Assembly: GCF_003334385.1 (NCBI RefSeq)
Contig: NZ_QOWN01000001.1
Source of the DNA: Escherichia coli
GTDB taxonomy: Bacteria > Pseudomonadota > Gammaproteobacteria > Enterobacterales > Enterobacteriaceae
Length of the DNA: 64,000 nt
Direction: 5' to 3' (one strand)
Under the pieces are notes generated by a model. It saw nothing but the letters and a program-made list of their open reading frames with translations, was not told where the DNA came from and ran no database searches. A program made the translations under genes and the position numbers. This document shows, piece by piece, positions 59,969 to 64,000 of this stretch (position 1 is its first letter; each line of letters starts with the position of its first letter).

Positions 59969-60406
59969 TCATTCATCGATGCACTTTATAGAATCATCAA
60001 TGGCCATAATAGTACTATTAACTCTCAATTTTATATTTTTATCATCACTACAAATATTAACTGAATTTATATCAATGATTTTTTTATTCTTATCTTTTAT
60101 TTTATTTACTGTTTCAATGCAATCAGCGGCAAGTTGGAGTGGATTTAGATTTTTCAGATATGGTCTTATGATCTTTCCCTTACTTAATAAATAGCATGTA
60201 TAGGATTCGGAAAGTCCAGCATCTATTTTGTACCTCATTATATTAGATAAGGATGTGAGAAATTCCTTGTTATCATTCGCAGCCATATATGCCAGTCCGA
60301 GTTCAGCCTCTGCGGCCTTACAGGCAAAATAGCTTAGTGAACACGCTTTTCGTCCCTCTTTAGTACTGGCTGATATTAGTGCCCATAATATTGCTTTGTC
60401 TGCCAA
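59969..60406 (-). CDS. Hypothetical protein, candidate immunity partner of the decayed third Rhs C-terminal cassette
   Basis: 145-aa frame with TTG start and no in-frame ATG upstream; AT-rich; sits directly downstream of the decayed toxin remnant. Confidence 0.4.
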   Translation of the reverse strand: MADKAILWALISASTKEGRKACSLSYFACKAAEAELGLAYMAANDNKEFLTSLSNIMRYKIDAGLSESYTCYLLSKGKIIRPYLKNLNPLQLAADCIETVNKIKDKNKKIIDINSVNICSDDKNIKLRVNSTIMAIDDSIKCIDE

Positions 60407-60494
60407 ATCTAACTCTCTCTGAAATTGTCTTGCAGTAACTGCACTCGCAGAAATAGAGAAAAAAATACAATTGTTAATAACCTTGCCATATTTT

Positions 60495-61110
60495 TTAGTC
60501 CGTAACTGTTAATGTGCTATCTGGCTCTGAAAATATTAACTCATTTAATTTTTGCATGTCATTAGATAAACCAGTTATACAACCCTCGGAACAGAATCGA
60601 GGTCCTAAAGACGGACCAAAAGCGTTTAAACAACTATGTATTGAAAATCCATTGCGATTATAAGTTCCTGTATTAACTGACGGTACTAATCGTATGCCGT
60701 CAGGTTTTCTATTGCTTGCTCCCGGGTCATTAACATTCCAACTCCATAGGCCTTGAGGTATTGGCCATCTATTTATAAATGTGTACAACGGGGATTATTT
60801 TTACATTGCATATTATTACCAGAAGCGACTGGAATACTAAGCACATCATAAAAATTATCATCACATGGTATATCTGAAACACACGAAAGCATACCTAAAG
60901 TTATGCTGTATAAACAGGTGGCTAATCCCAAGGGGATCGATTCCAGAAATCGGGTTCAACGGATACTGATAAAAATTCCACCTACCTTCCAGCCCAATCG
61001 GAGCCTGAGTGTTATACCGCCCCTGCTGCGGTTAATGTTACCGATAATAGTTATAGTACAGCCCTGATTCATCATCATACTACTGCTGCGGCAGTCTGAT
61101 GAACTATTGC
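60495..61110 (-). pseudogene. Decayed orphan Rhs core-end plus C-terminal toxin remnant
   Basis: My translation of 60951-61110 gives [45 protein letters not shown], a stop-interrupted copy of the Rhs core end; followed by a 97-aa TTG-start frame at 60495..60788. Confidence 0.6.
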
Positions 61111-61112
61111 TT

Positions 61113-61574
61113 TTACGGATTCTCCTTATTCTTCCTTCTATCCATTCGCTTTAGCTTTTTGAGCTCTTGAAGTTTGCTCTTTGCATCAATATTACCGTTA
61201 TTTACAGCGAATTCCATCCAATAAATAGCTCTATTCAAATTATAATATTCTGATAATGTTGGATTTGTATCTGATAAAAAGACCCCATAATTAAACTGCG
61301 CTGTAACATTCCCCTGAGATGCTGATCTTTCCAAGAATCGCAATTGTTTGTAAATGTTATTTTTAGTAAAGCAGTAATATTGATATAGTCGAAATGATGC
61401 CTCTGAATCACCATGTTGTGATTTATACTTCAGTTTCATCAACTTTTCTTCACTTAAATCATAGGTCATTGCTGTAGACCCCATCATACTTTCGTTTTGT
61501 TTTATTTTCACATCAGCACCATGCAATTGACAAATAAAAGAGAAATAAAAAAATAGTAACAAGCATGCTTTCAT
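61113..61574 (-). CDS. yibG: Sel1/TPR-like repeat protein with signal peptide; putative immunity protein for the YibJ toxin domain
   Basis: 153-aa ORF, ATG start 12 bp after the yibJ stop; N-terminus MKACLLLFFYFSFICQLHGA is signal-peptide-like; Sel1-like repeats. Confidence 0.8.
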   Translation of the reverse strand: MKACLLLFFYFSFICQLHGADVKIKQNESMMGSTAMTYDLSEEKLMKLKYKSQHGDSEASFRLYQYYCFTKNNIYKQLRFLERSASQGNVTAQFNYGVFLSDTNPTLSEYYNLNRAIYWMEFAVNNGNIDAKSKLQELKKLKRMDRRKNKENP

Positions 61575-61585
61575 ACATCTACAAC

Positions 61586-62566
61586 CTATCTTATATCACT
61601 GGGTTTTTCTGGCGTACCTTGCATATTAGAAATGGGGTGCCCAGATGGCCCATATGTTATCCAATTACCAAGGTCTTTTGTTGTTATAGCCATTAGATCC
61701 TTATTTGAATTAAGGTTCGTTGGTGCTGTTAGCACTGTATCCATTTTTAACTTACCATTAGTTCCTCGCCCCCACCACGTCCATAGCGTGTCAGGTCCTA
61801 TTACATTTGTATGTAACTCTTTAGCTAATTGGCTAGCAAATGAATTTTGTCCTTTACCTGTATTACAAGAAAATAACCAAACTGTCATCCCATCTTTATA
61901 ATTCCCATCAAATTTAATTAGATATGCTAGATCTTTAGCTGTCATGATACTGCGCGTTGCGGATTCAATAGATGTGGGGGTACCATGCCCCCCGATTGTG
62001 AAAACGCCTGGGATATTAATCTCATCAGCTACAGAATGGATAAGATCACTTTCGGGGTATAAATTTATATCAACCAAACCTTGCGGATCTACATTTATGA
62101 CCGGATTCAACGGATACTGATAAAAATTCCATCCCCCCTTCAGTCCAATCGGATCCTGAGTGATATACCGCCCCAGCAGCGGGTCATAATAGCGGTGGCG
62201 GTTGTAATACAGGCCGGACTCCTCATCATACTGCTGACCCGGCAGGCGAATGAGCTGCTGCAGATGATGCGGGTTCTCATCACTCAGCAGGTTGCCCCAT
62301 TCATCATATTCTGCGCACCACGCTGTTGCCCCTTCCGTGCTGATGAGCGCCAGCGGCAGGCCGCGATGGTCGCAGTGGTACAGGTGGATTTTTCGCGCCG
62401 GCGTGTACACCGGGTCCATCTGGTTTTGCATCTGCTCCACGGTCAGGCCGCACGATGCCAGCCAGCGGCGGCTTTCCTCACTCACCCGGTCAGCCAGGAT
62501 TTCACTTTCCAGCCGGTCGAGCATCTGCACCGTGCCGGCGGGAATCCCCCACTGTGCATAGGCAAC
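61586..62566 (-). CDS. yibJ: Orphan Rhs fragment: last ~150 aa of Rhs core plus a distinct ~160-aa C-terminal toxin domain
   Basis: Frame open from 62566 (6 bp after yibA stop) with no N-terminal region; contains [57 protein letters not shown] then an unrelated tail; ORF track shows it from GTG 62530 (314 aa). Confidence 0.8.
62103..62250. repeat. Rhs core 3'-end repeat, copy within yibJ
   Basis: Near-identical to 63856-64000 (GGATTCAACGGATACTGATAAAAATTCCATCCCCCCTTCAG...). Confidence 0.85.
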
Positions 62567-62571
62567 TCACG

Positions 62572-63414
62572 CTATGAACGCTTCAGCTTATCAATAGCGG
62601 AAGTTATAATTTCATTGTCATCAAACTTGTACAACATAGTATCTAAAACAGGAAGTAGCGTTTTATCACCTAATTCACCCGCAGCTTCAATGATATCATC
62701 ATAAACAGTATTTTTTTTTAACTCATCGCATAAAACAGATAAAACCCTTTTATCTTTTCTGTAGGAAAGTCCGATTATTGCTTCAATACGGACTTCCTCA
62801 TTTTTATCCTGAAGCATCTCCACAAAACAATCCCTAATATCACTATTATCATATTTATTGATATTTATTGCAAATGCGGCCCAGTTTCTGACATCTCCAT
62901 TTGGATCTTTTAACAGATTAATCAATAGTGGAATTGTTGCTTTATCATTGATAACAGAAATAGCAAATGCTGTAGCACGTCTGACATTAGTCGATTTATC
63001 AAAAGCAGTAATTTGAGATTGTTCTACTATTTTAGGTGAATAAATTGGGTTTTTCTTGCATCGCTGAGCCGTTGACTCGATTGCCGTAGCTCGAACGCAA
63101 GCGCTCTTATCATTCAATGCCATATTGTTCAAAATATTAAAAACATTATCTTCGCATTTTTTGCAAATTTTTATTTGCCCGAGTATAAATGCTCCGATAT
63201 CTCTACGGATATAATTTTTATCAGAGCAGAACTCAATTGCCAATCTAACAGCGTCTTGCCCACCTCTTAACTGTAATACTCTGGCAGATGAAATCCTTTT
63301 CAAGGAATTGTGATCATCAAGTAAGCGAAATAATTCATCATCATTTAGTTTCTTACATTGATTATATAAACCATACTCTTTACTTGCCTTTCTTTTCTGG
63401 TATGTATTTGACAT
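62572..63414 (-). CDS. yibA: HEAT-repeat protein YibA; putative immunity protein for the RhsA C-terminal domain
   Basis: ORF track frame to GTG 63429; start at ATG 63412-63414 (MSNTYQKRKASKEYG..., 280 aa) with GGAGG 8 nt upstream; begins 20 bp after rhsA stop. Confidence 0.9.
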   Translation of the reverse strand: MSNTYQKRKASKEYGLYNQCKKLNDDELFRLLDDHNSLKRISSARVLQLRGGQDAVRLAIEFCSDKNYIRRDIGAFILGQIKICKKCEDNVFNILNNMALNDKSACVRATAIESTAQRCKKNPIYSPKIVEQSQITAFDKSTNVRRATAFAISVINDKATIPLLINLLKDPNGDVRNWAAFAININKYDNSDIRDCFVEMLQDKNEEVRIEAIIGLSYRKDKRVLSVLCDELKKNTVYDDIIEAAGELGDKTLLPVLDTMLYKFDDNEIITSAIDKLKRS

Positions 63415-63434
63415 TGCAGGAACCTCCACAAGGG

Positions 63435-64000
63435 CTATCTTTTTTTATCGTTTGACTGTCTGGAGTGACGACAATTCCAGGCTTTCTGTGTGCTTTTTGC
63501 ATCTTTAGCACTAATATCACCACAATCAATTAGTTCCTGAAGTACGTCACATCTGTCGGGTTTTTTCCCATCACTCCAGAATCTGTCATTTATTATGTCA
63601 TTGACACGATCAGTTATCCCTGTGTCTGCAACATTTCCACGAGAAGCTATCATTGTTATATCTAATGCTAGTCCCGGATTATTCAATATTAGAGAGTCAA
63701 ATATTCTTTGTGATGCTGTATCGTTCCACCATTTTGTCAATGCTTTTGCAGCATTATCATCTGCTTGCTGCTGTGCAGGGCTTTTGGGCCATGGAATTGG
63801 CAAGGGGAATGGTCTAGGAAAAACTTCTAACCCCAGAGGATCTGTATTCGTAACTGGATTCAACGGATACTGATAAAAATTCCATCCCCCCTTCAGCCCA
63901 ATCGGATCCTGAGTGATATACCGCCCCTGCAGCGGGTCATAATAGCGGTGGCGGTTGTAATACAGGCCGGACTCCTCATCATACTGCTGCCCCGGCAGGC
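63435..64000 (-). CDS. rhsA: RhsA 3' end: end of core including the DPxGL boundary plus variable C-terminal domain; 5' part beyond window end
   Basis: Frame open to window edge; my translation of 63864-64000 gives [57 protein letters not shown], continuing into [14 protein letters not shown]...; stop TAG at 63435. Confidence 0.9.
63856..64000. repeat. Rhs core 3'-end repeat, copy in rhsA proper
   Basis: Near-identical to 62103-62250 and related to the decayed copy at 60951-61110. Confidence 0.85.

Follow-up and report, generated by a model that had tools for sequence, protein, structure and literature searches.

Organization of the yibJ locus

This analysis concerns yibJ, an Escherichia coli gene whose product ends in a 162-residue tail that is predicted here to be a cysteine peptidase of clan CD, with a fold like that of caspases and cysteine protease domains (CPDs). 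The gene lies in a window (the whole stretch of DNA that was analyzed) of 64,000 nucleotides (nt) from contig NZ_QOWN01000001.1 of NCBI RefSeq assembly GCF_003334385.1. We consider it probable that the tail, YibJ-CT, is an exchangeable Rhs toxin tip, a clan CD cysteine endopeptidase with a His30-Cys70 dyad that is neutralised by the product of the adjacent yibG gene, and that it is stored at this locus as an orphan.

The gene order of the region in the window is mtlADR-yibIH-...-yibG-yibJ-yibA-rhsA, with the rhs genes on the minus strand (Table 1). The 314-codon open reading frame (ORF) of yibJ (61586-62530) begins with GTG; residues 1 to 152 come from the end of an Rhs core, and the tail makes up the rest. 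The core fragment matches the NCBIfam RHS_core model at positions 1111-1261 of 1261 (E 2e-90), as well as TIGR03696 (4e-25) and Pfam RHS (5e-15), and the residues before the tail fit the Rhs boundary motif PxxxxDPxGL. Translation of the minus strand gives exactly the residues, followed by a stop, that the original prediction had quoted as lying beyond DPQGL, and comparison with the RhsA tip bears out its statement that the two tips are unrelated. The frame opens close behind yibA, as had been described, at a distance of 5 nt rather than 6 from the yibA stop (yibA stop 62572-62574; in-frame stop 62567-62569). No promoter-proximal start had been seen for it, and the earliest start codon is the GTG, 41 nt downstream of the yibA stop. 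The core fragment has a GC content of 0.61, the tail one of about 0.39 and yibG one of 0.32; a fall from core to tip is usual for Rhs tips. This is the layout of an orphan rhs module: a core fragment ending in PxxxxDPxGL, no N-terminal delivery region, a variable tip and a downstream predicted immunity gene, all located after the main rhs gene.

Table 1. Positions of yibJ, yibG and associated features in the window
Feature	Positions	Strand	Description
YibJ C-terminal toxin domain	61586..62074	minus	162 aa + stop; predicted clan CD (caspase/CPD-like) cysteine peptidase, 'Tox-Caspase' / DUF8616
His30 codon (TIGGHG)	61985..61987	minus	predicted general base of dyad; just past beta-strand 24-28
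Cys70 codon (LFSCNTG)	61865..61867	minus	predicted nucleophile, single Cys of domain; just past beta-strand 64-68
Rhs core remnant	62075..62530	minus	152 aa from GTG 62528-62530; boundary peptide at 62075-62104
yibG	61113..61574	minus	153-aa Sel1-like-repeat protein, starts 11 nt after yibJ stop; predicted cognate immunity protein
YibG predicted Sec signal peptide	61518..61574	minus	MKACLLLFFYFSFICQLHG, cut before ADV; read from sequence features
Main rhsA, 3' core end	63864..64000	minus	runs off window end; candidate recombination partner to put YibJ tip on full-length RhsA

Family and fold of the YibJ tail

Direct searches with the E. coli tail gave no match in Pfam-A (even at E<=10), NCBIfam, PDB sequences or PADLOC, and a word-indexed homologue search returned Escherichia and Salmonella only. 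An exhaustive phmmer search of 1.84 billion cluster representatives was needed to reveal the family: 562 proteins reach E<=1e-3 and 80 reach E<=1e-10, well above anything due to chance; a genome-locus search with a 12-sequence alignment yielded 8 loci. The link to described families came from scanning 64 of the relatives singly and from the predicted fold. Two contexts are seen: the domain comes last in Rhs/YD proteins about 1100-2450 aa long and in fragments of them, and giant proteins of 2000-6800 aa contain 2-5 copies of it internally. Six of the latter, of 3000-6800 aa and apparently actinobacterial (P0025, P0028, P0029, P0031, P0033 and P0043), carry 3-5 copies a few hundred residues apart, and in some giant-protein copies the His and the Cys are lost together (e.g. 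P0025 3112-3278 and 3259-3425).

The only invariant columns in the 64-sequence alignment are His30 and Cys70, which lie in the two segments, TIGGHG and LFSCNTG, that the original prediction had picked out as conserved. When 160 copies of the domain are compared, 155 retain His30, 156 retain Gly31 and 156 retain Cys70; in the few that have lost them, His and Cys are missing together, and all of these, save for one fragment, are copies repeated inside giant proteins. Residue 69 is a Ser in 103 copies, an Ala in 47 and a Gly in 5. The predicted nucleophile is Cys70 and not Ser69, since Ser69 varies (Ala or Gly in 52 of the 160) while Cys70 is kept. Thus, of the proposed catalytic His and Cys or Ser, the His and the Cys hold and the Ser does not. 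An alpha/beta-hydrolase serine esterase or lipase was also considered and rejected, as a conserved serine nucleophile in a GxSxG motif is not found in the family. In the alignment no column of Lys or Arg reaches 90% conservation, and the tail, with 13 Lys and Arg against 16 Asp and Glu, has a pI of 5.7. Because it is acidic and without a conserved basic residue, the tail probably does not require inositol hexakisphosphate (InsP6).

AlphaFold2, run on the tail with the 64-sequence alignment, gave a model with a predicted local distance difference test (pLDDT) score of 93 and a predicted TM-score (pTM) of 0.89. In this model His30 follows strand 24-28 (VFTIGGH30G) and Cys70 follows strand 64-68 (VWLFSC70), with a helix between. 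The order His-Gly ... (Ala/Ser)-Cys, each after a hydrophobic beta-strand, is that of clan CD, and the model displays the alpha/beta fold common to caspases, legumain, gingipain, clostripain, separase, CPD and CHAT. A Foldseek search of the PDB is in weak agreement (MARTX CPD and AEP, E ~0.01, TMq 0.35); the nearest structural neighbours are Tce1 of Pseudomonas aeruginosa, then the CPDs of MARTX, TcdA and TcdB. Alignment of the family profile to sunflower AEP1 (legumain, 6azt; E 0.55) places His30 on the His of NHGGPG and Cys70 on the Cys of LEACESG, which we take to be the catalytic residues of that enzyme. Pfam matches to the 64 relatives taken singly were weak, and all fall in clan CD: DUF4347 (PF14252; 9 relatives at E<=0.1, best 9e-6), Peptidase_C80 (PF11713; 3 at E<=0.1, best 3e-4), C13 (4), CHAT and C25. 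The E. coli tail itself matches neither PF14252 nor PF11713. Neighbours in AFDB outside Escherichia include Rhs fragments labelled DUF4347 or Peptidase C80, and others are actinobacterial multi-toxin proteins with the source names pierisin-like, TNT, enterotoxin and T7SS signal. In recent assemblies the Prokaryotic Genome Annotation Pipeline (PGAP) calls this ORF 'DUF8616 domain-containing protein'.

The fold class predicted for the YibJ tail is therefore clan CD, caspase/CPD-like. This agrees with the earlier suggestion of a hydrolase-like toxin domain behind the Rhs cleavage site, and Foldseek and the Pfam scans of relatives gave no placement in a non-enzymatic family. The statement that no fold or family could be assigned is superseded by the relatives' Pfam matches, the profile alignment and the predicted structure. 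As a caspase-like domain with His and Cys, standing last in an RHS toxin and beside a predicted immunity gene, the tail is a putative toxin tip of the 'Tox-Caspase' class, which Zhang, de Souza, Anantharaman, Iyer & Aravind 2012 (PMC3482391) defined, by prediction only, by a caspase-like fold with H and C. A second, divergent Rhs tip of the same fold family, with 33-35% identity, is also present in E. coli, O157 included (AFDB A0A376S9M4, A0A9P2VKJ6 and A0A793N7A2).

The partner gene yibG

YibG has weak Pfam matches to TPR_27 and Sel1 and is named 'sel1 repeat family protein' by PGAP. Its N-terminus has an MK n-region, a hydrophobic core (Kyte-Doolittle mean of up to 2.5 over 10 residues) and, ahead of the predicted cut, L-H-G. 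At 10 loci in widely separated taxa the toxin is directly followed by a homologous gene for a small Sel1-like-repeat (SLR) protein. The pairing is seen in Salmonella (L003), Paraburkholderia (L008), Luteimonas (L010, where the partner has the lipobox LVGC) and several Streptococcus species (L009, L012-L015), as well as in a VgrG-PAAR-Rhs locus (L005), behind a 2449-aa YD protein (L006), with a metagenome Rhs (L016) and in a VgrG-DUF2169-PAAR-Rhs locus (L018/L019). The ten partner proteins align over their full length. Eight of the nine from outside E. coli match YibG with E values from 2e-29 to 6e-5, and two SLR partners match it poorly, with E values of 0.1 and 1.2 (all calculated for a nominal 1e6 database sequences). 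At an acidobacterial locus and behind an actinobacterial WXG100 toxin, the genes downstream of the toxin are other than SLR genes. Within E. coli, yibG is found in 3472 genomes and the toxin in 3497.

From these data we infer that YibG is the cognate immunity protein of the tail, and its N-terminal sequence suggests that in E. coli the toxin would meet YibG in the periplasm. A signal peptide or lipobox is found in 7 of the 8 Gram-negative partners; because an export signal is present on YibG and on most homologues from Gram-negative bacteria, a periplasmic or envelope target is proposed. Two observations bear on this interpretation. The partners in L018/L019 and in Streptococcus have no signal peptide, so that the site of action may differ within the family. 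A nonsense allele of yibG at first seemed to speak against an immunity role but is confined to 32 of the 3472 genomes.

The signal-less members of the YibG family are encoded at L018 8111-8455, in a betaproteobacterial Rhs locus linked to a type VI secretion system (T6SS), and in Streptococcus at L009 6356-6736 and L014 6417-6740. The nonsense allele occurs in some O157:H7 genomes, in which Trp119 of yibG is changed to a stop (L001 7120, equivalent to window 61219) and the full-length RhsA with its toxin tip is intact. In oral streptococci (L009, L012, L013, L014 and L015) YD/Rhs tip cassettes form arrays in which the ORF of the caspase-fold toxin is split by frameshift or truncated next to undamaged Sel1-repeat genes, in some cases two different ones in tandem; these arrays look like immunity genes retained after decay of the toxin. 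Structure prediction of the tail together with YibG, as had been proposed, was done with AlphaFold2 on the toxin fused by a linker to mature YibG. It gave two confident domains, with YibG all-helical, and a pTM of 0.57 that is uninformative on the complex.

Distribution, genomic layouts and expression

Of 5426 complete E. coli genomes, 3497 (~64%) have the tail, and in 3488 of these it is at least 99% identical. The yibA-yibJ junction, i.e. the orphan layout of the window, is found in 2949 genomes. In O157:H7, NCTC86 and others the tip ends a full-length RhsA of 1409 aa that is followed directly by yibG, and yibA is absent. The description of an orphan cassette beside yibG is thus correct for the window and is not the only arrangement. 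The yibJ core fragment has about 94% nucleotide identity to the 3' core of K-12 rhsA over about 480 nt, and 95% to O157 rhsA. Because of this identity, a deletion by homologous recombination would be able to turn one of these layouts into the other; deletion-type recombination of orphan rhs modules has been shown experimentally in Salmonella (PMC3967940).

In MG1655 yibJ, Gln82 of the tail is a TAG codon (L007 5921-5923), for which reason the gene is annotated there as a 233-codon pseudogene; the window has CAG at 61829-61831 and its tail is intact, so that its DNA is closely related to K-12 but is not that of MG1655. The stop allele is found in 359 genomes, those listed being K-12-type laboratory strains, and 3087 other genomes differ from the 57-mer of the stop allele. 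Scans for consensus promoters and terminators gave none above shuffled expectation. Genomic SELEX (systematic evolution of ligands by exponential enrichment) lists RpoD sites in the yibA>yibJ and yibJ>yibG spacers, and Salmonella rhs tips are expressed from internal promoters. The suggestion that the frame is silent unless recombined onto rhsA is therefore plausible as regards recombination, given the missing delivery region and the core identity with rhsA; silence itself is not established in view of the RpoD sites. Linkage to T6SS genes is seen for relatives, which have VgrG, PAAR and DUF2169 neighbours. The N-terminus of O157 RhsA matches DUF6531 (5e-18) and, marginally, PAAR (E 0.18).

Proposed mechanism and alternative explanations

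In a full-length Rhs protein such as that of O157:H7, the Rhs shell would encapsulate the tip, and the Rhs aspartyl autoprotease would cut after DPQGL (between this motif and the following V), freeing the tail. The T6SS would presumably carry the tip into a neighbouring bacterium, where the freed tail would act as a Cys70/His30 endopeptidase on at least one recipient protein, most likely in the periplasm or envelope, and would thereby be toxic. Exported YibG, a two-repeat Sel1-like protein, would bind and neutralise the incoming toxin as its inhibitor. The orphan copy in the window retains only the last 152 core residues and could not be delivered alone; it would serve as a stored tip able to recombine onto rhsA and as the carrier of the yibG immunity gene.

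Since the tail is closest in structure to Tce1 and to the CPDs (of MARTX, TcdA and TcdB) that InsP6 activates, one may ask whether the domain is instead an anti-eukaryotic effector, like Tce2 or the cofactor-activated CPDs, that is inactive in bacteria, with YibG as a chaperone or adaptor. Tce2 harms yeast and not E. coli, both Tce proteins lack an immunity gene, the RhsA of enterohaemorrhagic E. coli (EHEC) O157:H7 ends in this domain, and a sublineage of 32 O157 genomes combines an intact toxin with the yibG nonsense codon. We regard such an effector as unlikely, however, as the toxin is followed, also in bacteria of soil and water and in orphan arrays, by a small dedicated SLR gene, an arrangement that marks interbacterial polymorphic toxins. 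Moreover, the absence of a well conserved Lys or Arg column and the acidic pI make a CPD-style InsP6 pocket unlikely, and the nonsense allele is rare. It is also conceivable, although decidedly improbable, that the domain is not the toxic payload and works instead as an autoprocessing or 'releasing' peptidase, the role of most Tox-Caspase and CPD domains in internal positions. The C80 CPDs work in cis, giant actinobacterial proteins contain 2-5 internal copies of the domain, most Tox-Caspase versions were described in this way by Zhang et al. (PMC3482391), and the source names of the multi-toxin relatives in AFDB would fit, although these are names only and do not give the domain order. In Rhs proteins, however, the domain is the last and sole one after DPxGL, with no payload downstream; release is already provided by the Rhs aspartyl protease motif, and the domain has a conserved immunity gene of its own.

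The window copy has no delivery region, the stop at Gln82 is carried by K-12 MG1655 and 358 other genomes, and the next module downstream is visibly decayed, all of which would be expected of a decaying remnant without present function. Against this, the allele in the window is intact and the tail is nearly invariant among the genomes that have it, so that we consider a remnant very improbable; this explanation concerns only the present copy and is compatible with the biochemical identity of the domain. A serine hydrolase of esterase or lipase type, acting through Ser69 and His30, is barely credible, given the variability of Ser69 across the 160 copies. The HG after one strand and the small residue and Ser after the next do resemble the arrangement of an oxyanion hole and a nucleophile elbow; a lipase would also accord with a periplasmic immunity protein, and a T6SS phospholipase is known to have SLR immunity proteins (cited in PMC7216683).

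The reading of YibJ-CT as a clan CD cysteine endopeptidase neutralised by YibG makes the cassette directly testable, with a defined His30/Cys70 dyad and a defined partner; if it is true, the substrate of the protease would be new biology. The cassette matters in that about 64% of complete E. coli genomes have it and that O157:H7 carries it on full-length RhsA. We advance more tentatively the proposal that YibJ-CT and YibG would be the first characterised antibacterial toxin-immunity pair built on a caspase fold, consisting of a cofactor-independent clan CD protease, delivered by Rhs and the T6SS to an envelope or periplasmic target, and an exported Sel1-repeat inhibitor; such a pairing of protease and inhibitor would be without a described precedent. 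In the literature searched we found no experimentally characterised caspase-fold antibacterial toxin or Sel1-repeat protease inhibitor, and no experimental work on YibJ-CT or YibG; both genes belong to the E. coli 'y-ome', without assigned function (PMC11551758).

Neighbouring genes

The product of yibA (62572-63429, minus strand) is named a 'putative lyase' (NCBIfam PRK09687, 3e-140). As a HEAT-repeat protein whose gene comes immediately behind the RhsA tip, it is more likely an immunity protein for RhsA than a lyase. Among the immunity classes listed by Zhang et al. 2012 (PMC3482391) is Imm-HEAT, there the partner of an RHS toxin (Ntox34); yibA itself has no mention in the text searched. Downstream of yibG is a second, decayed orphan module (window 59969-61078, minus strand; yibS/yibW/yibV/yibU in K-12). 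It consists of an Rhs-core remnant with stops, a 97-aa ORF (60495-60788) with weak Pfam matches of Tlde1/YkuD L,D-transpeptidase type (E 0.008 and 0.04), and a last ORF (59969-60406) that is a frameshifted Imm57 immunity protein according to PGAP.

Comparison with known systems

The YibJ family resembles Tox-Caspase in its His and Cys, its C-terminal place in RHS proteins, its internal repeats and the loss of catalytic residues in some copies. Zhang et al. (PMC3482391) regarded internal Tox-Caspase domains as mostly releasing peptidases and those at the C-terminus of RHS toxins as likely toxins themselves, and they noted repeated copies in giant Streptomyces toxins, some of them without catalytic residues. 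The partner differs: Imm36 (Actinobacteria) in that work, and an exported Sel1-like-repeat protein for YibJ-CT.

Tce1 (PA0256, PDB 9qpe, DUF4347) and its paralogue Tce2 (PA2372) belong to the P. aeruginosa H3-T6SS and were presented in 2026 as putative cysteine proteases carried by Hcp3. Yeast is harmed by Tce2, and this toxicity depends on Cys115; neither protein is toxic in E. coli, neither has an immunity gene, and an anti-eukaryotic role was proposed. These are free-standing Hcp3 cargo, whereas YibJ-CT is fused to Rhs, has a conserved immunity gene and shares 12% identity with Tce; the E. coli tail also lacks the PF14252 match. The C80 CPDs (Vibrio cholerae MARTX, Clostridioides difficile TcdA and TcdB) are internal, act in cis and are switched by InsP6, whereas YibJ-CT is terminal and acidic, with no conserved basic residues and no PF11713 match.

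The tip has been considered before, in an in-silico study of EHEC EDL933 in which PCR shows that the real RhsA carries it (z5014 fused to z5017). That study modelled the tip on 3HO6 (TM 0.73), read it as inhibiting small GTPases, named z5018 (yibG) RhsAI, an SLR protein, and separately found a match to the MARTX CPD for the tip of z0268, the Rhs of the T6SS island. As 3HO6 is the cysteine protease domain of TcdA, the reading of the EHEC RhsA tip as a small-GTPase inhibitor is corrected here to a predicted protease.

In its organization the locus is most similar to the orphan rhs-CT/rhsI modules of Salmonella Typhimurium (PMC3967940, PMC7043789), in which a core fragment, a tip and an immunity gene likewise lie downstream of the main rhs gene and share core homology with it. 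The YibJ tip differs from these in the type of toxin, and its recombined form is seen as a layout of natural E. coli strains.
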